From: Candidatus Pyrohabitans jungbluthii | Lineage (GTDB): Archaea; Hydrothermarchaeota; Hydrothermarchaeia; Hydrothermarchaeales; BMS3B | NCBI GenBank assembly: GCA_002010065.2 | Contig: MTMD02000014.1 | Location: 4,534-68,533, forward strand | Direction: 5' to 3' | Length of the DNA stretch: 64,000 nucleotides | In this document: positions 11,096-47,553 of the stretch, piece after piece | How positions within the stretch are numbered: position 1 is the stretch's first letter | How the letters are laid out: each line of letters begins with the position of its first letter | Position numbers and translations under genes: made by a program | The notes under the pieces: generated by a model | What the model saw: only the letters and a program-made list of their open reading frames with translations | What the model was told of the DNA's origin: nothing | The model's database searches: none

Positions 11096-11111
11096 AGGAA
11101 ATAAGCGCAGG

Positions 11112-11879
11112 CTAACCTTGTTCAAACCAGCTAAAAAGCTCAGGGTGGGCATCTTCAAGCACTGGAAAGCTGCTCCTCACCCTGGCGACTTCCTCTATGC
11201 TGAACTCCACCTCGAGCAAAGTTTCGTCGCTACCCGCCCTGGCGAGAACCTCGCCCCACGGTGATATAACGGCGCTTCCGCCCGCGTAGGAGTTGTGCTC
11301 GTCCTTACCCACGCGGTTGCATGCAAGCATAAAGCATTGATTCTCTATCGCTCTGGCTCTAACAAGGACATCGAAGTGCTCTTGGCGCGGTGCTGGAAAT
11401 TCGGCGCTCAGGAGAAACACCTCACTTCCAAGCAAAGTCAAACGCCGGAAAAGCTCAGGGAAGCGCACGTCGTAGCACGTTGCTAGGCCAAAGGTTGTGT
11501 CTCTCGCTCTCGCTACCACCGCCTTCTCACCTGAGGTGAAGTAGCGCTTCTCCTCGCCAAAGAGGTGGAGCTTGCGGTATGTGGCGATTACTCCGCTTCC
11601 GCTCAAAAGAACAAAGGTGTTGTAAAGCTTACCGCCATCGTTTTCCAGAAGCGTTCCGGCGATAAGCCTCTTGCCTGCGAGTTCGCAAAGCTTATGCACT
11701 GTTTCGCCGTTCAGCGGTTCAGCGAGCTTTTTGAGCCTGGGAAAGTCAAAGCCGGTGGTGAAAAGCTCCGGGAAGAGCACCAGCTCTGCTCTTGTGCGGG
11801 AGAGTGCCTCCTCCACCTTGGTGAGGTTTGCCTCCTTATCGCCCAGGGCTATATCCAGCTGTGCAACTGCAATGCGCAT
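11112..11879 (-). CDS. Carbon-nitrogen hydrolase (nitrilase/omega-amidase superfamily)
   Basis: MRIAVAQLD, FPELFTTGF, YRKLHLF and GLATCYDVRFPE match the E-K-C catalytic-triad blocks. Confidence 0.85.
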   Translation of the reverse strand: MRIAVAQLDIALGDKEANLTKVEEALSRTRAELVLFPELFTTGFDFPRLKKLAEPLNGETVHKLCELAGKRLIAGTLLENDGGKLYNTFVLLSGSGVIATYRKLHLFGEEKRYFTSGEKAVVARARDTTFGLATCYDVRFPELFRRLTLLGSEVFLLSAEFPAPRQEHFDVLVRARAIENQCFMLACNRVGKDEHNSYAGGSAVISPWGEVLARAGSDETLLEVEFSIEEVARVRSSFPVLEDAHPELFSWFEQG

Positions 11880-11880
11880 C

Positions 11881-12765
11881 TCAGAAAAGCTCTCTCAGGT
11901 AAATCTTGTGCTTTCCAAGATTGCCGCCATAGTTGCCAGCTGTAATTCTGCGCACGCCTTCCACCTGCGTAGCTGCCTCTATACCTAAGCGCATCGCCTC
12001 AGCCACGGCGTCGACGCTAACTCCGTCGATTACCACCTCAATCACAGCATTCACGCTGGCATCTAAGGCTGAGTCTTCAACCTTATCCTTGAGCGTGGGG
12101 CAAAAGCGCTCATTGGTAGTGGCGTGCATAAATTTATACTTCTTGGAGCCCACCTTTGAGCCGCTGGCTACGACGCCACCCGGGAATGGAGTTATAGTTC
12201 CCTCCTGCTCTGCAATTGCCTCCACGGCACGTTCAGCCGCGGCTAAGGCGCTCTCTGCACTTGAGGCGAGGATTATGAAGTTTCCGCCGGCGACGCCCTT
12301 GGCGATGGTCAAATTCCTCTCTATCATAAACTCCCCCATCATTATGGGCACCGCCACCATCTCCCTCTCAAAGGCGCTTCGAACCTCCTCGTAGCCGTCG
12401 CCGAAGTATTTGAGCTTGTAGCCCACGTCCACAGGCTCGCCCTCGCCCAGGCTGAACACCCTCGTTGTGGGAGCGGTAAGCACACACTGCCCTATGCGTT
12501 TAATCAGCTCCATGGGTAACTTCTTTTTTGGTGCGAATACCTGCACTGCGCAGCCAGGACGGGAGTCGGGTGTCTCGCTGGGCGAAAGAATGCGCTCTAT
12601 CCCCGCCTCTGCGGTGCACGCTATAAGTGAGGTTCCAAACCCGGTAGCCTCAGTAGCGGCGATGTGCGCCCACTTCTCGTTCACGGCGGTTATTATAAAC
12701 CTGGAATACCAGCTGTCAAATGCCTCCGCGAAGGTATCCTCCACCTCAACGCCGTTAACCTTCAT
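11881..12765 (-). CDS. ftr: Formylmethanofuran--tetrahydromethanopterin N-formyltransferase
   Basis: The N-terminus MKVNGVEVEDTFAEAF and the overall length (294 aa) match Ftr. ATEATGFGTS is a conserved block. Confidence 0.9.
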   Translation of the reverse strand: MKVNGVEVEDTFAEAFDSWYSRFIITAVNEKWAHIAATEATGFGTSLIACTAEAGIERILSPSETPDSRPGCAVQVFAPKKKLPMELIKRIGQCVLTAPTTRVFSLGEGEPVDVGYKLKYFGDGYEEVRSAFEREMVAVPIMMGEFMIERNLTIAKGVAGGNFIILASSAESALAAAERAVEAIAEQEGTITPFPGGVVASGSKVGSKKYKFMHATTNERFCPTLKDKVEDSALDASVNAVIEVVIDGVSVDAVAEAMRLGIEAATQVEGVRRITAGNYGGNLGKHKIYLRELF

Positions 12766-12890
12766 GTCCTCACCGTTTTATCATTTTTAATCATGATTTA
12801 TATGGTTTGTGTTAAGGTTATGGGTATAATATTTAGGCATAATTTTGCCCGAATCCATGAAAATAAAAAAAGAAAATTTAAGCTGCGCGC

Positions 12891-14177
<1,287 letters not shown>

Positions 14178-40056: not shown

Positions 40057-41730
40057 TTAGAGATAATGCCCCTGGACAGTTGACTCGGCGCAAACATATC
40101 TTTCCATCTCCCTCACCTCCCCATTTTTAAGCACCATGTACTTCGCGTATATTAGCCTGTCCTTCCCCAGGCTCTTTCTGTAGAGCCTTTCAACGATGAA
40201 GCCTCCGGCTTCTTCTCTCGCAACGGTGTGGGATATCGGCGGCTCCCTCAGGATTTTGAGCTCTCCTCCCATCTTCTGAGCCTCTTCCCTCATATCCTGC
40301 AGGACCTTCTGAAGCTCTCCCTCATTTACCTCCCGGTGCTCCCTTCCGTACCAGGAATTTGAAGTTTCATGAACCACAAAGCGCACATAGTCTGCCGCCT
40401 CTTCCGGTGTATCTATGGGCGCAAACAGGAAGGATGCCTGCTCCCAGCCTTCCACGGCGAAGCCCACGTTGTTGTATTCGGCGATGAGATAGCTGAGCTC
40501 ATCCGCTCCGATGCGCTGGTAGATGGGTCTGATAAGCCTGAAGCCCTCTCTGAGCTTTAGGCTGGGGTAGCGCCTTTTAACACCCTCTTCCGTTGAAATT
40601 ACCCCGAGACCCTCGGATATTTCAAACTCCTCGTCGAGGATTGGAACCTCCTCGCCGTTGATGATGAGGCGCTCCCTGAGACCGTCGTAGGTGACGTTGT
40701 GGGGTGGGAAGAACGCAGGAGCCCTCGCGTAGAAGCGGGACCAGACCTCAATGTTCACCAGATAGTTGCCCCTGACCTGCACAATGTCAAGAAGCGCCTC
40801 GCACCTGCTTTTAATCAGAGGCTCCAACCCTCTGCTCACTCTGAACAGGTCCTCAAAGGTGTAGAAGTTGCAGTGGTCTAAGGAATTATACGACTTGAAG
40901 TAGTATGCATTTGCCCCCCGGAGGGACATGCTACCCCTGTCCATCCACTCAAGCTCATAGAGGAGGCTGAACAGGGTAGAGGAGTATTTCTTCGGCAGGT
41001 ATCCCTTCGCCAGCCTATTCCCATCTTCACCCGGCCTGAGCTTTCTGATGTAGACCCTCACCGCCTCTGCGACCTCTCCGTCCTCCTCACGCCAGTAGGT
41101 CACAAACCTCTCCCCTCTCTTGCCGCCGAAAAAGCTCTCCAACCCCTCTGTTGAATTTGGCGGCGCCTCAACGACGCCCTCTTCACCCTTTATCCAGCCT
41201 TCCGGCAAGTAAGAGAAGCGTATATCCCCGCCTTCAATGGTCACCCCTCTGGCTACCTCCATAGCCTCGGTTTCCAGTATGTCACCCTTTTTATCCTGAG
41301 AAATGTAGGGATCGAGGTTTACGGTGAGATTCCCGAACACTCCTTTATCTATGGCGATAAAAGGCGGTGAATAGATTATGAGCAGATTCTCCGGATATGT
41401 GAGCGAAATAACCCTTCTGTCACCCTCCTTCATGGGCATGATGTACTCACCTTCATCTTTTTGATTCATAAGAATGAGACTGCGATAGCCGGTATCTGCC
41501 ACAAAATCGCCCCAGTATATGTTCCTAAGCTTTGGTTCTATTTTCTCAACCTCAATTACCACGTCGTAGTATCCTGTGGCAGGGTTCTCCCGCACCTCAA
41601 CAAGTTTGAATGTCACCTCGACAGGAGAGGGCGGCACCGGCGGGGATAAAACAATATACAAGAGCAGGGCAGAAATGACGACCACGAATACGCCAGCTAC
41701 GCCAAGAACTATTTTTAGAGACTTTCTCAT
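40057..41730 (-). CDS. Hypothetical large N-terminally anchored extracytoplasmic protein
   Basis: The anchor is LKIVLGVAGVFVVVISALLLYIVL. The roughly 520-aa ectodomain has no recognisable motif. A GGAGAG site lies about 10 nt upstream of the ATG, 53 nt after the upstream zinc-ribbon gene. Confidence 0.55.
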   Translation of the reverse strand: MRKSLKIVLGVAGVFVVVISALLLYIVLSPPVPPSPVEVTFKLVEVRENPATGYYDVVIEVEKIEPKLRNIYWGDFVADTGYRSLILMNQKDEGEYIMPMKEGDRRVISLTYPENLLIIYSPPFIAIDKGVFGNLTVNLDPYISQDKKGDILETEAMEVARGVTIEGGDIRFSYLPEGWIKGEEGVVEAPPNSTEGLESFFGGKRGERFVTYWREEDGEVAEAVRVYIRKLRPGEDGNRLAKGYLPKKYSSTLFSLLYELEWMDRGSMSLRGANAYYFKSYNSLDHCNFYTFEDLFRVSRGLEPLIKSRCEALLDIVQVRGNYLVNIEVWSRFYARAPAFFPPHNVTYDGLRERLIINGEEVPILDEEFEISEGLGVISTEEGVKRRYPSLKLREGFRLIRPIYQRIGADELSYLIAEYNNVGFAVEGWEQASFLFAPIDTPEEAADYVRFVVHETSNSWYGREHREVNEGELQKVLQDMREEAQKMGGELKILREPPISHTVAREEAGGFIVERLYRKSLGKDRLIYAKYMVLKNGEVREMERYVCAESTVQGHYL

Positions 41731-41783
41731 TATCTTATTCTCTCCTTCGGTTACAGCCTAAAGGAAGCGTAGAATTGGGCAAA

Positions 41784-41819
41784 CTACCATCCTCCGTCAT
41801 CGCCGCCATCGCCCCAGTC
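41784..41819. repeat. Left arm of a perfect 36-bp inverted repeat (codes the last 11 residues + stop of the minus-strand gene)
   Basis: The reverse complement of 41784-41819 is gactggggcgatggcggcgatgacggaggatggtag, identical to 43697-43732. Confidence 0.9.
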
Positions 41820-42452
41820 ACCATCATCGCCATCATCAGAGCCGCCGTAGCCGAAGGAGTCATCAAAGGCGGCGTCATCCGAATTTACATCCTCAAGTAT
41901 TGAGCTGTAGTCCTCCTCCGGAATTGCGACAACCTCTGCAACCTCCGATTGAGAAACACCCTGCGGAAGGTCGTTGAGGTAGGACATAACAAATATTGGT
42001 GCTGCATACCGCATTGCATCGTCCTCATCTTCCCTGATGATTCTCCCTATTTTCTTCCTGTCCTCCTCAACAATTTTTTCTGCTTTGGGTGTCAGCTCAT
42101 AGTACTTTTTCTTTCTAAAAAATCCCTTCTTCTTAACCCTGAGCAGGTCTCTTTTTATCAGCTTGTCGACAGTATTCCTGATGTAGGAGTGGGACTTTCG
42201 GACCATCTTTGCGATTATTTCCGTGTTGCTAATCCCGTGCTTCACCGCCATTAATACAGAAAGCTGTACCGGGGGAAGCGAGCATTTGATTTTCTTTTTC
42301 TTCGTCTTCTTTGTAGATTTTTTAGATTTTGCCTTGACTTTCCTGTTAGCCTTGCTTAAAATTGATTGTCTGTACTTCCTTAAATCTTTGCCACAGTTAG
42401 AACAGAAATTGTGCTTCTCACCCACCTCTGCCCCGCATTCAGGGCAAAACAT
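41784..42452 (-). CDS. Zinc-ribbon + winged-helix protein with an acidic Gly/Asp C-terminal tail (paralogue A)
   Basis: The zinc ribbon is MFCPECGAEVGEKHNFCSNCGKDL, followed by a Lys-rich linker. The wHTH-like block is LPPVQLSVLMAVKHGISNTEIIAKMV...LLRVKKKGFFRKKKYYELTPKAEKI. The tail is GGSDDGDDGDWGDGGDDGGW. The start is set at the internal ATG 42450-42452. Confidence 0.65.
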   Translation of the reverse strand: MFCPECGAEVGEKHNFCSNCGKDLRKYRQSILSKANRKVKAKSKKSTKKTKKKKIKCSLPPVQLSVLMAVKHGISNTEIIAKMVRKSHSYIRNTVDKLIKRDLLRVKKKGFFRKKKYYELTPKAEKIVEEDRKKIGRIIREDEDDAMRYAAPIFVMSYLNDLPQGVSQSEVAEVVAIPEEDYSSILEDVNSDDAAFDDSFGYGGSDDGDDGDWGDGGDDGGW

Positions 42453-42515
42453 ATTATCCCCTCTGGTTATGTTGGTATTTATATTTTTCGCAAACTGTGG
42501 CGGCTGAGGGCGAAT

Positions 42516-42529
42516 CGCATAAATTTGCG
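42516..42529. promoter_or_regulatory. Near-palindrome in the divergent promoter region (candidate operator)
   Basis: cgcataaatttgcg is a 14-bp palindrome with one central mismatch. It lies midway between the two divergent zinc-ribbon/wHTH genes and between TATA-like tracts (ggtatttatattttt and ctatttatatga). Confidence 0.2.
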
Positions 42530-42640
42530 GCAAAAATCGAAGATATTGTGATTTTGCTGTAAAACTGCGCCAGTTGGATATTATTACTTGCACACATAAA
42601 CCACAAACTATTTATATGACTAAAATTTTATAAGGATAAA

Positions 42641-43732
42641 TTGAACATGTTCTGCTCTAATTGCGGAGTAGAAGTGGAGGAAACTGACAAATTTTGTTAT
42701 AATTGCGGGCATAAACTAAAGGTTAGAGGCAGGGTTTCTAAGAGTGCTGGCGGGGAGGTGGAGAAGCAGGTCAGCAAGGCTAAATCTGCTAAATCTCCAG
42801 CTAGGGGTAAAGCTAAAAGTAAAATAAAGCTGAAGTGCTCAATTCAGGGGATGAACAAAAAATTCAAACCCAACGGCTCCTACAGGCTTTACAGTCTCGG
42901 GAGGGTTTCCCTCGAGGAGGCTCTGGAGTATCTGAGAATGATGCCTGAAAAGGAGGACTTTCCGCCAAAACTTCTGAAGAGAATTAAGAATATGGAAGAC
43001 GTGTGTGTGCCCCACTTAATCTTCTCAAACACCTACACCCTCACCTTTTTCACCTCAGACGGAGAGTCAATAGAGGTGATAACAGAAGACTTCACCGAAC
43101 TTGCAGGATTTAAATTTAAAAGTAGCTCTGCCGAGCTAATAGCGGTTGACGTCAGCAGAGAGGAGGCAGAGGAGATATTGAAGGATTTCTTCTGGAGAGT
43201 TGAGAGGATAAAGGAACTGAAGCTGAGGCTCTCCCCGCTTCAGCTGTCGATAATGACAGCCATAGACAATGGTGTAAGCAACTCGCACGCCATGGCTGCG
43301 GTTACTGGTGTGGGGCAGAGTGAGGTGAAGGATGAGATTAAGGAGCTGCTGGATAAGGATTACATTAAGCTCAGGAAGAAGGGCTTTATAAGGAAGAAGT
43401 ACTGGTATGAGCTTACTCCGAAGGGTGAGAGCATACTTGCGAGGGACAGGAGGAAGGTTGAGAAGGCGGTGGCAGATGATGACAAGATGCTGAATAATTT
43501 TGCTGCCCTCTTCTGGATGATGTATGCCCTGCATGTCGTTCCTGATACCATCACCGGAGACCAGATCGTAGATGTCATAGGCGAACCCCCCGGAGAGGTG
43601 GAGGAAGTGGTCGCCGTGCCGGAGGACATGGCATACGACATCGACGTAGATGCAGGTGGAGATGGCGACGATGGAGGCGATTATGGAGACGACGGAGACT
43701 GGGGCGATGGCGGCGATGACGGAGGATGGTAG
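42641..43732 (+). CDS. Zinc-ribbon + inserted domain + winged-helix protein with the same acidic C-terminal tail (paralogue B)
   Basis: It begins MFCSNCGVEVEETDKFCYNCGHKL, followed by a Lys-rich linker and an extra domain of about 125 aa. The wHTH block is LSPLQLSIMTAIDNGVSNSHAMAAVT...IKLRKKGFIRKKYWYELTPKGESI. The tail is GGDGDDGGDYGDDGDWGDGGDDGGW. Confidence 0.65.
   Translation: MNMFCSNCGVEVEETDKFCYNCGHKLKVRGRVSKSAGGEVEKQVSKAKSAKSPARGKAKSKIKLKCSIQGMNKKFKPNGSYRLYSLGRVSLEEALEYLRMMPEKEDFPPKLLKRIKNMEDVCVPHLIFSNTYTLTFFTSDGESIEVITEDFTELAGFKFKSSSAELIAVDVSREEAEEILKDFFWRVERIKELKLRLSPLQLSIMTAIDNGVSNSHAMAAVTGVGQSEVKDEIKELLDKDYIKLRKKGFIRKKYWYELTPKGESILARDRRKVEKAVADDDKMLNNFAALFWMMYALHVVPDTITGDQIVDVIGEPPGEVEEVVAVPEDMAYDIDVDAGGDGDDGGDYGDDGDWGDGGDDGGW
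43697..43732. repeat. Right arm of the perfect 36-bp inverted repeat
   Basis: See 41784-41819. Codons immediately upstream of the repeat differ synonymously between the two genes (gat gat ggt versus gac gac gga). Confidence 0.9.
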
Positions 43733-43742
43733 AGAAGCAGGG

Positions 43743-46490
43743 ATGAAAGACCGGCTTATTTTACTTTTGATTTTCACGGTTTTACCCGCTATTCTCCTGA
43801 GCGGCTGTTTTGGCGGTGGGGAGGAGTTTGTGGAGGAGGTGATACTCGAAAAAACCATAAATCCAGATGAGACCCAGACTGTGGAATTTGACGGCGGGAG
43901 TGTTACAATACCTTTTGGAACAATCGACGAGAATGATACCTTAAGAGTGGCAGTGGTGAAAAAAGCACCAAAACCAGAAGGTGCTGAAATATTAAGAGCC
44001 TACAATATAGATTTGGCCAAGACGGAAAATCTCAACGGATATATTGAGATAAAGCTGAGGCACACCGGGCCAGCCAAAAACATTGTGGCTCTGACCTACG
44101 ACGAATCCTCCAAGAGATGGGTGGGTGTGTTGTACAGAATAGTCGATGATGGCGTTATTATATACACCCCGCACCTGTCCTATTTTGCCACAGCTGTGGT
44201 GACTCACGAGTCAGGACCAATGGCAAAGATAAACTTAGATTACGTATCCGCAGCCGGCGTCTCAATGGATGAGGATAGAGCGTTAGCTGTGCTGCGGGAA
44301 TACGTAAACAACAACTACGAGCCTGGTCCCAATGCCTACAGGGTTGGCTGGGACGCCGCGATGGAGTATTTTGGAATTGGGGGTGCAGCATCAACCTTCG
44401 CCCAGCATGGGCTTGACGTGCAGACGCTTGATAAGTTCAACACATGGGCAACGCACTTAGGGGTTGTGTTTGCAGTAATACAGCTTGGCTGGGATCTGTA
44501 TGATGGAAATGCCGATGAAGGAACTGTTAACTTTCTGAAGAACATGATGTACTCGGCGGTGGGTGAGTTTGGCACCCCAGCAATGCAACTCAGCTTTGTT
44601 GGTGTATTTGCAATAGACTACTCTCTAACAAAGTTCATGGTAACCGCTATAAGCGACAGGGAGAAGATATGGGAGGAAGCCTACAAGCTGTACTATAAGA
44701 AAGATGATAGGGTAAAGCAGAAGAAAAAGATGAAATACTGGTATGATGAATTTTTAAAACTTTACAAGGAGAGCAGAACTCCTGCGGAATTAAAAGCAAA
44801 AATTGATAAAGCTATAAACGACTACGTTTACGATTTCTGGGAGGATGAAACCACAGTTGCTTTCTATCAGGAAGAGGTCATGAAACACGCCTGGACCGGC
44901 GGCGGTGGGCTGAACGAGGAGCTTAAAAAGAAAATCTCAGAAAATCATAAGGCGGAGCTTATGAATGCCCTAAAGCCAGTATTTTGGAGGCTTGAAGAGC
45001 AGATTTTACTTGAAATGCAGGCAAAAGCCACCAGACAATTGAAGAAAATGGCTGAGGAACTGAACAAAGTGTATACCCTGAATGTCAGGGTAAACGGTCC
45101 AAAAGATTTTGTTTCGGGGCTTGAAGTTTATATTCCAGTGAAGGCGGGTAATCAGGAGCAGTGGAGCTGGGAGACGGACGAGAGCGGCGAGTGCTTCATC
45201 AGGTTTACCCTCTACGGACTCCTGAAATCACAGGCAAAGAACAAGGTTGTGCTTATAACAAAGACTGGAGAAAAAATTGAGCAGGAGTTCAAGCTCACTT
45301 CTAGGTCAACGAGCGTTGTTTTTAATATAGAGGGCAAGGGTAGCATTCAGGTCAGCGTAACACCGAAGAGGGTTGCTCCCGGGGACAAGATTAAGGTGAG
45401 CGTTCAGGTAAATCCGCCTGTTGAAACAGAGCTGGAGATTAAGATAGAGAATATTGAGACGGGGTATGGAAAGAAATCAGAGCCGTGGAAGGTTAAGACA
45501 GGCAAGGACGGCAGATACGAGAGCAACTTTGTTATCCAGCCCAAAGATGTTTATAAGAAGGCGGGTAAGAATGTGTTAATTGTCACCGCCCCAGAGCTCG
45601 GAGCTGAAGGCAAAGCAACCTTCGAGATTATCAAGCCGGAGATCAGCGTTACAGTCTCACCCTCAACAGTTAGACCGGGTGAGGCTGTGGTGATAAAGGC
45701 GAGGGTTGAGCCGCCCGGGAGGTATAAAGCCAAGCTTTCCGTTTTGAACGCGCAGAGCGGTGCGAGCTACAGCGACATAAAATACACGGACAGCAGCGGA
45801 AACTTCAGATATCAGCTGAGGATATACGCGAAAAACATCGAGCAAAAGCTGGGAACAAACATCGTCAGCGTTGAGATACCAAAACTCGGGGTTATGGGCA
45901 CCGCAAGCTTTGTTGTTGAGGCAGAGGTGATGCCGACACCGAAGCCAACGCAGACGCCGGCACCCACATCTGAGCCTACAGGGACACCACTTCCAGGAGA
46001 GCCCACAACTACACCACAGGCTGAAAGTCCCTTCAATTTAAATAAGGAATATAAGGCAGGTTTTGTGGTAGATGTAGAACTCCAAGATGGAAAGCGCGAT
46101 TGGTTTAATTTAAATACCTATGGATATGGCAGTAAAGTAACTAACAATATATATCATGTTAAGTATGACTATCGTGGAGACCCAAGGACTATAGGAGAGT
46201 TCAAAGCAACTTTCGACCAAAATTACAGGCTCATGACAATAAATGCTTGGCAAAAGATATTAAATAAAAAAGGAGATGTCGAACTTGAAAAAGGATTAAT
46301 CTGCAACAATCTTGGATTAGATGTTTATGGCAGATCTTGGAATGGGGATAGGGTGAGATATTGGAGTGGAGATGAAAAATTGCTATCTTCTTCCTGTACT
46401 GCGTATCATCGACATTTGGGCACTGAAATGAAAATAAAGCGGGTCGTTGAACTGGATATTAAGTTTAGAATGATTGAAGATGAAAAATGA
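43743..46490 (+). CDS. Large predicted surface lipoprotein with tandem Ig-like repeats, a Pro/Thr linker and a compositionally distinct C-terminal domain
   Basis: The lipobox-like signal is LLLIFTVLPAILLSGC. Two repeats of about 100 aa are SVTPKRVAPGDKIKVSVQVNPP... and TVSPSTVRPGEAVVIKARVEPP... The linker is PTPKPTQTPAPTSEPTGTPLPGEPTTTPQ. The last 150 aa or so are encoded by DNA of about 30-35% GC. The start is set at ATG 43743, 10 nt after the upstream stop. Confidence 0.65.
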   Translation: MKDRLILLLIFTVLPAILLSGCFGGGEEFVEEVILEKTINPDETQTVEFDGGSVTIPFGTIDENDTLRVAVVKKAPKPEGAEILRAYNIDLAKTENLNGYIEIKLRHTGPAKNIVALTYDESSKRWVGVLYRIVDDGVIIYTPHLSYFATAVVTHESGPMAKINLDYVSAAGVSMDEDRALAVLREYVNNNYEPGPNAYRVGWDAAMEYFGIGGAASTFAQHGLDVQTLDKFNTWATHLGVVFAVIQLGWDLYDGNADEGTVNFLKNMMYSAVGEFGTPAMQLSFVGVFAIDYSLTKFMVTAISDREKIWEEAYKLYYKKDDRVKQKKKMKYWYDEFLKLYKESRTPAELKAKIDKAINDYVYDFWEDETTVAFYQEEVMKHAWTGGGGLNEELKKKISENHKAELMNALKPVFWRLEEQILLEMQAKATRQLKKMAEELNKVYTLNVRVNGPKDFVSGLEVYIPVKAGNQEQWSWETDESGECFIRFTLYGLLKSQAKNKVVLITKTGEKIEQEFKLTSRSTSVVFNIEGKGSIQVSVTPKRVAPGDKIKVSVQVNPPVETELEIKIENIETGYGKKSEPWKVKTGKDGRYESNFVIQPKDVYKKAGKNVLIVTAPELGAEGKATFEIIKPEISVTVSPSTVRPGEAVVIKARVEPPGRYKAKLSVLNAQSGASYSDIKYTDSSGNFRYQLRIYAKNIEQKLGTNIVSVEIPKLGVMGTASFVVEAEVMPTPKPTQTPAPTSEPTGTPLPGEPTTTPQAESPFNLNKEYKAGFVVDVELQDGKRDWFNLNTYGYGSKVTNNIYHVKYDYRGDPRTIGEFKATFDQNYRLMTINAWQKILNKKGDVELEKGLICNNLGLDVYGRSWNGDRVRYWSGDEKLLSSSCTAYHRHLGTEMKIKRVVELDIKFRMIEDEK

Positions 46491-46575: not shown

Positions 46576-47553
46576 GTGTTTGGTTTGGAGTGGGAGTACG
46601 ACGTGATGTACTGGGTTAATGCGATAACTATTTCATCAGACAGCTCTTTCATCGTTGCCGGTTCTGCTGATGGAGGGATACATTCACTCGCCAGAAACGG
46701 CGAGCTTCTGTGGGATTATGAAGCAGAGGGCAGCATCCGTGCGATGGCTGTGGTGGAAGATGCCTCATGCATCGCCGCGGGCATAGACGGCGGGGAGGTG
46801 CTCCTACTCAGCAGGAGCGGTGAGCTTATCTGGAGCCATGGGCTTGAAAGCAGGGTTAGCTCTGTCTCCGTCCCGTCGGATGGGTCTTTTGTAGCCGCAG
46901 GTGCAGGTGGCTGGCTCTATGTCTTCAGCAGACGCGGAAAACTCCTGTGGAGCAGTAAGGTTGCCCGGAGCGTTGATTCGGTATCTGCATCGGCAAACGG
47001 CTCATGCATAGCTGTGGGAGCCAGAGACCTGAGCAGCGGTAAGGTTTGCCTTTTCGACAGGCATGGAGATGTGCTCTGGGAGCAGAAGACCGGCTGGAGC
47101 TTAGCCGGGAGCGTGAAGGTTGCAGCCTCTCAGAGAGGGACGCTGATTGCCGCGGGCTCGTTGCACGGTGTAAGGATGTTCGACGCGGGTGGTGAGTGTC
47201 TGTGGTACTACGAAACCGGAGGTGGCGTTGAGGATTTAGCCTTCTCTCCGGACGGCAACTACGTGGTTGCCGGCACCCTCGATGGGGCGGTTTATTTATT
47301 TAGCAAAGATGGAATGGTGTGGAGCAGAAAACTTAAAAGCTCAATCCGGGCGGTTGGGATTTCAGAAGCAGGCTGCAGCGTGGCGGCTCTGGACAACGGT
47401 TTCATTTACCTGTTTGATAGGGAGGGTGAGATTCTCTGGGAGAAGGAGACATACGAGGGCATTTGCAGTATAGACATTTCCCGCGACGGCTTGTGCATTG
47501 CCGCTGGCTCTGAGGACGGCGTTGTGTACATGTTTTCAAGGAGAAGAACCTGA
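46576..47553 (+). CDS. PQQ/WD40-like beta-propeller repeat protein
   Basis: About eight repeats of the form (S/A)xDG.....AG(S/T).DG.(V/I)(Y/H)(L/V)(F/L)(S/D)R.G(E/K)LLW are present. It uses a GTG start and has no obvious signal peptide. Confidence 0.7.
   Translation: MFGLEWEYDVMYWVNAITISSDSSFIVAGSADGGIHSLARNGELLWDYEAEGSIRAMAVVEDASCIAAGIDGGEVLLLSRSGELIWSHGLESRVSSVSVPSDGSFVAAGAGGWLYVFSRRGKLLWSSKVARSVDSVSASANGSCIAVGARDLSSGKVCLFDRHGDVLWEQKTGWSLAGSVKVAASQRGTLIAAGSLHGVRMFDAGGECLWYYETGGGVEDLAFSPDGNYVVAGTLDGAVYLFSKDGMVWSRKLKSSIRAVGISEAGCSVAALDNGFIYLFDREGEILWEKETYEGICSIDISRDGLCIAAGSEDGVVYMFSRRRT

Follow-up and report, generated by a model that had tools for sequence, protein, structure and literature searches.

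A 36-bp inverted repeat at the 3' ends of two divergent archaeal winged-helix genes is a probable footprint of gene conversion

We analysed a stretch of 64,000 nucleotides from the uncultivated deep-sea archaeon Candidatus Pyrohabitans jungbluthii (Hydrothermarchaeota; assembly GCA_002010065.2, contig MTMD02000014.1, positions 4,534 to 68,533), hereafter the window, and focused on two divergently transcribed genes for zinc (Zn)-ribbon and winged-helix proteins whose coding sequences end in the arms of a perfect 36-bp inverted repeat. This repeat probably records short-tract gene conversion, whereby one of two old, divergent paralogues overwrote the 3' end of the other, and both have kept the same C-terminal peptide.

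Results

The left arm, CTACCATCCTCCGTCATCGCCGCCATCGCCCCAGTC (41784-41819, minus strand), consists of the last 11 codons (DWGDGGDDGGW) and the TAG stop codon of the short paralogue (222 aa; 41784-42452, minus strand), and the right arm, GACTGGGGCGATGGCGGCGATGACGGAGGATGGTAG (43697-43732, plus strand), holds the corresponding 11 codons and TAG of the long paralogue (361 aa; 42647-43732, plus strand). As an initial annotation of this DNA had pointed out, 41784-41819 and 43697-43732 are exact reverse complements of each other. The two arms are the only copies of the 36-mer in the window, even when three mismatches are allowed, and no copy arose in 100 shuffles. Perfect identity is lost on one edge at the stop codon, beyond which the flanks are unrelated, and on the other where the codons first differ synonymously; the differences in the next three codons upstream are all synonymous, also as first described (GGT/GGA, GAT/GAC and GAT/GAC, short versus long paralogue). 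A repeat finder extended the structure imperfectly to 69 nt of D/G-rich coding sequence with 83% complementarity (41784-41852 / 43664-43732), which would provide homology sufficient for starting a conversion event.

Outside the tail, synonymous sites between the paralogues are saturated. We aligned the two genes by codon, counted the positions at which a degenerate amino acid is identical in both proteins, and took the expectation from the window's own codon usage; 32 of 81 such codons in the body of the genes are the same, against 33.9 expected. Within the tail all nine degenerate codons are the same, with 3.5 expected, and the stop codon is shared as well. The probability that all tail codons agree is 1.4e-4, or 4.6e-5 including the stop codon. 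The D/G-rich codons just upstream of the tail have the same composition and match at 2 of 7 positions, and by Fisher's exact test the tail differs both from the body (P = 5e-4) and from these adjacent codons (P = 0.005). The identity of the tails is both real and recent. An assembly artefact was ruled out as its source, because the sequence recurs at 100% identity in contigs of three samples, the whole locus being 100% identical to these Joint Genome Institute (JGI) metagenome contigs.

The paralogues that carry the repeat are older than the identity of their ends. Their loose similarity and shared Zn ribbon, noted at the outset, were borne out: they are 33% identical over the winged-helix region, and both score above the gathering threshold of 25 bits for Zn_Ribbon_1 (PF13240), with 31.9 bits (short) and 33.7 bits (long). 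The winged helix and following helices of the short protein are 45-46% identical to those of the P0004/P0155/P0156 clade and 32% identical to those of its neighbour, and a neighbour-joining tree likewise placed the short protein with that clade. A recent local duplication is ruled out by the saturated synonymous sites and by this position in the tree. As the short gene groups with another clade, the shared 36-nt block would need a later transfer, i.e. gene conversion.

Further support comes from strain variation. The metagenome-assembled genome (MAG) Candidatus Pyrohabitans sp. JdFR-17, Hydrothermarchaeota (L005), has the locus on a contig with an identity of about 97%. In L005 and in L119, a metagenome contig, the short-gene arm is broken to 14 + 18 nt by a clustered 3-nt indel and one substitution (GGC GGC -> GGA GAC GGA), and the short gene, here of 223 aa, ends GAC TGG GGC GAT GGA GAC GGA GAT GAC GGA GGA TGG TAG. 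The long-gene arm is identical in L005, L119 and L116-118. Between the two short alleles there are eight differences in 669 nt, so that sister alleles differ by about 1%, and three of the eight fall within about 40 nt at the tail; the third of these lies just outside the arm, and the two arm flanks of the indel still match the long gene. Because the JdFR-17 allele matches the long gene on either side of the indel, at least one conversion would predate the split of the alleles. Their present difference would have arisen after the split in one of two ways, through a second conversion that made the window allele perfect again or through slippage in the other allele, and the former would be the more parsimonious account of a clustered change. 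The initial annotation had offered ongoing gene conversion or recombination between the two ends as one of two explanations, and it agrees with these data: the tail is the sole identical part of otherwise synonymously saturated paralogues, and the arm is polymorphic among near-identical strains.

The strains also recombine elsewhere in the locus, namely in the promoter region shared by the two genes (42453-42646): L119 combines a JdFR-17-type short allele with a window-type long allele, and recombination between strains at this place explains why the assembly of one sample is split there (L002, L117). We also observed that the JdFR-17 scaffold contains, at this same place, a 100-N gap with duplicated 55-nt flanks (L005 9690-9790), which is a scaffolding artefact.

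In more distant relatives the short gene and the repeat are absent. These are L006, a Hydrothermarchaeota MAG whose long protein is about 79-80% identical to that of the window, and L048, a metagenome contig with a long protein of the L006 kind. A remnant of the short gene, comprising its promoter and first few codons (ATG TAT TGT CCT G...), is found in this sister lineage (L006 9690-9830 and L048 ~380-520, compared with window 41731-42460). Since promoter and first codons persist, the short gene was deleted in the L006/L048 lineage, and the gene pair is therefore ancestral and has been lost there.

The initial annotation had raised the possibility that the repeat arms flank an invertible segment. 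In such a segment, homologous recombination between the arms would flip 41820-43696, which holds both inferred promoters, and thereby exchange the regulator and promoter heading each of the adjacent surface-protein operons, in a form of phase variation independent of a dedicated recombinase. The geometry would permit it: since each coding sequence has one of the arms as its final 36 nt, both frames would survive a flip, and this part of the proposal stands. The downstream genes look co-transcribed with the preceding regulator (spacers of 10 and 53 nt), and two assemblies are broken within the locus. The promoter-swapping switch itself found no support. At the left junction the reference reads TAGAATTGGGCAAA, the arm and ACCATCATCGCCATCATCAG, and the inverted form would read TAGAATTGGGCAAA, the arm and TCCGTCGTCTCCATAATCGC. 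When orientation was compared across strains on contigs, a single order, 557-aa gene to short gene and long gene to lipoprotein gene, was seen in all five contigs that span the pair (the window, Ga0314846, JGI24019J35510, Ga0314848 and JdFR-17; four samples or MAGs), assemblies showing the majority form only, behind which a rare inversion by general homologous recombination on 36 bp may go unseen. The assembly breaks lie in the promoter region and not in the arms, and they coincide with the strain-recombination breakpoint (the L119 mosaic) and with the scaffolding duplicate. Moreover, one co-occurring allele has an imperfect arm (14 + 18 nt), the sister lineage that has neither short gene nor repeat keeps the long-to-lipoprotein adjacency, and no gene within about 10 kb has a Pfam match to a recombinase, integrase or transposase, in line with the earlier statement that no recombinase is encoded nearby. 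Because the long-to-lipoprotein adjacency is found both in the repeat-less lineages and in the distant members L120 and L123, the orientation in the window is the ancestral one. That the contigs L120-123 end upstream of the long gene was considered as a sign of a switch and rejected, as the sequence there is merely extremely AT-rich. We consider an invertible segment highly improbable, and it is equally hard to believe that the arms are maintained because an occasional homologous inversion, with its exchange of regulator and promoter at the head of each surface operon, is useful.

The second explanation offered by the initial annotation was selection on the DNA or RNA sequence itself. Under such selection the 36-mer might serve, for example, as a target for a small or antisense RNA, as a translational-coupling signal or as a protein-binding DNA site. 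Both mRNAs would bear the identical sense sequence, the 36-mer is G-rich and includes GGAGGA, which resembles a Shine-Dalgarno (SD) sequence, and the boundary of identity is sharp. Against this, the nucleotide sequence has diverged in the orthologues of L006, L048 and L004. The long genes of the window and L006 are 81% identical at the nucleotide level, and gene-wide 179 of 277 synonymous codons are the same; over the last 11 codons only 2 of 8 synonymous codons agree and there are two replacements, so that the comparison of the 36-mer with synonymous drift that had been suggested gave ordinary synonymous divergence across the long-gene tail. In addition, the element is polymorphic between strains about 1% apart, where the JdFR-17 arm is broken to 14 + 18 nt, its distance to the downstream start is unequal (10 versus 53 nt), and the 17 nt between GGAGG and the ATG at 43743 are too many for a typical SD. 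Selection on the nucleic acid is therefore very unlikely. The least probable alternative is coincidence, in which the same amino acids, encoded by a restricted D/G/W codon set under codon bias, yield identical DNA: the tail does consist of Asp, Gly and Trp only, with GGC and GAC as preferred codons, but the codon-usage probability given above (1.4e-4, or 4.6e-5 with the stop), the agreement at just 2 of 7 upstream D/G-rich positions and the occurrence of the minority codon GGA twice, and of GAT twice, in both tail copies all speak against it.

Gene conversion thus remains our preferred reading, and it presupposes that both proteins keep the same terminal peptide. The pattern DW[G/W]DGD.DG.W stands at the end of most full-length family members, and every one of them has a terminal Trp; examples are GDWGDGDADGAW, GDWGDGDADGDW, GDWGDGDGGW, GDWGDGDGDGW, GDWWDGDGDDGW and GGDDGGADGAW. 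The inner pattern departs in L006 (GDGGGDGGW) and P0005 (EWIDMDDGDMNGW), and the terminal W is retained in both. The elements shared by all 11 tails compared are G-D-W, D-G, D and the terminal W. Within the 1.15 Mb of loci retrieved, the regulator family alone has D/G-rich tails with a terminal Trp, and AlphaFold predicts residues 335-361 of the long paralogue to be disordered, with a predicted local distance difference test (pLDDT) value below 50. These observations uphold the suggestion in the initial annotation of a short linear motif shared by both proteins, and the tail is under purifying selection at the protein level as a short C-terminal motif, which explains why the tails of the two proteins are identical in amino acids. 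The charges of linker and tail are opposite, with +17 and -17 in the short protein and +13 and -19 in the long protein, so that electrostatic autoinhibition or docking may be put forward as a speculative role of the tail. A canonical DxDxDG calcium loop was considered and set aside; it fits the family consensus DGDADG and not DGGDDG of the window.

The short protein is composed of a Zn ribbon, a Lys-rich linker, a winged helix, a hydrophobic helix and the acidic tail, and the long protein has the same architecture with an additional middle domain of 135 aa (residues 58-194). The initial annotation had given their sizes as 222 and 363 aa. The former is correct, and the latter was counted from a TTG at 42641; as all homologues begin with MFC, we place the start at the ATG at 42647, which gives 361 aa. 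A full-length AlphaFold model of the long paralogue (pLDDT 74) shows, from the N terminus onwards, a Zn ribbon, a Lys-rich linker that is disordered, a middle domain of compact alpha/beta fold, the winged helix, two or three further helices and finally the tail, again disordered. The winged-helix fold was modelled by AlphaFold2 (AF2) with pLDDT 73-94 over residues 190-300, and its top Foldseek matches are all of the MarR family, which comes first (ZitR, HcaR, BldR), or AspA, with a probability of about 1.0 and E ~5e-3. A search of PDB sequences with the family profile found AspA at E = 5e-4. From this we infer that both proteins are DNA-binding regulators, each heading a surface-protein operon. 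The middle domain (42818-43228, plus strand) is absent from the short paralogue. Modelled alone it reached an AF2 pLDDT of 93, and Foldseek found no structural match for it in the PDB (best E = 0.5, TM-score about 0.3). Cys64 and Cys120 are invariant in this domain, which also carries the motifs IQGM..P.GS and DFP and may be a new sensor or interaction domain.

The family to which both regulators belong is tiny, with about a dozen clusters among billions of proteins. Among 1.84 billion representative proteins searched with a profile, five matched below 1e-30 and the remaining matches were to the generic Zn ribbon alone; a word-indexed search over 5.8 billion clusters yielded ten clusters. A metagenome scan with Zn-ribbon patterns added at least two relevant loci (L048, L049) among the matches listed. 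The hosts are Hydrothermarchaeota MAGs and other MAG and metagenome contigs. The short type was found solely in the window/JdFR-17 lineage and all other members are of the long type, which is the ancestral and widespread form. Two further proteins deserve mention. P0055, a 48-aa entry of the representative library, resembles a short paralogue that has collapsed to a fragment, with its Zn ribbon fused to the start of the winged helix. P0077 (172 aa) is a distant winged-helix relative that lacks a Zn ribbon and possesses a long hydrophobic segment and an acidic tail of another kind.

Downstream of the long gene lies the gene for a putative surface lipoprotein of 915 aa (43743-46490, plus strand), which starts MKDRLILLLIFTVLPAILLSGC and has a signal peptide ending in LSGC and immunoglobulin (Ig)-like repeats. 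Its ATG (43743), where the signal peptide begins, is 10 nt past the stop of the long gene. A gene call of 946 aa from the ATG at 43650, which would overlap the regulator tail, was rejected as an out-of-frame artefact; many spurious ATG codons occur at 43650-43742 because the GAT-GGN repeats create them. A homologous large lipoprotein gene directly follows the long gene in L006, L048, L120 and L123, and that of the distant members (L120, L123) matches at 34% identity over 200 aa (E = 3e-28). The arrangement of a long regulator followed by a large lipobox protein (800-915 aa) with shared Ig-like repeats was mapped at L120 1234-3861, L123 1262-3838, L006 ~11100-13427 and window 43743-46490, and we note that the pair of regulator and surface-protein gene is conserved in four lineages. 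The family members L040-L049 adjoin a histidine kinase and SurE instead of a lipoprotein. The long-regulator operon ends with a gene (46576-47553) for a WD40/PQQ-like beta-propeller of 325 aa in which no signal peptide is evident and which is conserved in L006; on a speculative note, it could be a partner of the Trp-containing tail.

On the other side, a 557-aa protein with an N-terminal membrane anchor (40057-41730, minus strand) is encoded 53 nt downstream of the short gene's stop, and searches of the Pfam and NCBIfam type found no family match for it. The interval up to its ATG at 41730 contains an SD-like GGAGAG and no obvious TATA box, and the gene is probably co-transcribed with that of the short regulator. 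The spacings first reported for the two flanks, 53 nt with GGAGAG on one and 10 nt on the other, were confirmed. PADLOC, PHROGs and NCBIfam returned merely weak winged-helix or Zn-ribbon matches, with no defence or viral context.

Between the two regulator genes is the 194-nt shared control region (42453-42646), whose promoter and operator roles are predicted. Each ATG is preceded, at a distance of about 25-36 nt, by a TATA-like box (42477-42488 for the minus-strand gene and 42611-42618 for the plus-strand gene). A perfect palindrome, TTTGCGGCAAA, is found at 42524-42534 and a related site, TTTGCTGTAAA, at 42553-42563; L006 and L048 have TTTGCTGTAAA at the place of the first site of the window (TTTGCGGCAAA). 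Both sites in this divergent promoter region are candidate operators for the regulators, and the conserved palindrome hints at sequence-specific DNA binding and regulation of transcription.

Discussion

We propose that the repeat came about in steps. Protein-level selection on the tail keeps the 3' ends of the two genes about 83% alike over some 70 nt, and this residual homology would, judging from the sequence patterns, let one copy repair or overwrite the other and so produce the perfect block. The block is recent and unstable, since it is perfect in one allele, reduced to 14 + 18 nt in its sister, and absent where the short gene was deleted. The genes linked in this way would encode AspA/MarR-type winged-helix DNA-binding regulators, each at the head of a cell-surface protein operon. 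More speculatively, the acidic tail (-17/-19) may fold back on the basic linker and winged helix (+17/+13), or dock onto a common partner, either of which would explain why it has been retained in both paralogues.

Several points weigh against parts of this proposal. More than one direction and number of conversion events would fit the two short-gene alleles, and at 41823 it is the JdFR-17 allele, not that of the window, which matches the long gene. Slippage in the (GAY/GGN)n tract could yield the JdFR-17 variant without a second conversion. As regards the proteins, the Pfam and NCBIfam matches to the winged helix-turn-helix are all below cut-offs, so that the winged-helix match is weak at the sequence level, the best Foldseek E is ~5e-3, and the function proposed for the tail is read from its conservation and charge.

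Gene conversion between inverted or duplicated paralogues is known from prokaryotes, for example from tufA/tufB in Salmonella and from the thermosome (chaperonin) subunit genes of archaea. As in those systems, we find patches of identity in diverged paralogues, a pattern of non-reciprocal recombination, and tracts that vary between close strains. The present tract differs in being only 36 nt long and confined to a low-complexity C-terminal motif, and the paralogues, whose domain architectures differ, share only about 33% identity in the remainder. With invertible switches such as fimS/FimBE, Hin/hix and the Bacteroides invertons, the locus shares inverted repeats around a promoter-bearing segment beside surface-protein genes. 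Unlike those systems, it presents a single orientation in contigs and no site-specific recombinase was found in the roughly 10 kb searched around it, and its repeat lies within coding sequence, is explained by a protein motif and is not conserved.

The proteins themselves resemble AspA, the centromere-binding protein of pNOB8, and the MarR/PadR regulators in their winged helix, which gave the best profile and fold match; they are unlike them in having in addition a Zn ribbon, a Lys-rich linker, a middle domain unmatched in the PDB and an acidic tail that ends in Trp. Acidic C-terminal tails with a terminal aromatic residue are familiar from DNA-binding proteins, as exemplified by the tip DDDIPF of bacterial SSB, the tail of T7 gp2.5 and the acidic tail of HMGB1. 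Like these, the tail described here is a disordered, strongly acidic segment with an invariant aromatic residue at its end, opposite a basic region, on a predicted nucleic-acid-binding protein. Its sequence is unrelated to theirs, being D/G-rich with two Trp, and a partner or an autoinhibitory function is hypothetical.

The process itself, gene conversion, is a known one, and what we describe is a new instance of it in an uncharacterised archaeal protein family. The repeat offers a clean and very short example of concerted evolution, in which a peptide motif would keep just enough homology for conversion. It also serves as a caution that perfect inverted repeats flanking promoters need not be switches. 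The protein family may be regarded as a by-product more interesting than the DNA feature that led to it, and should the tail turn out to serve in docking or autoinhibition, it would represent a new regulatory module in archaea.

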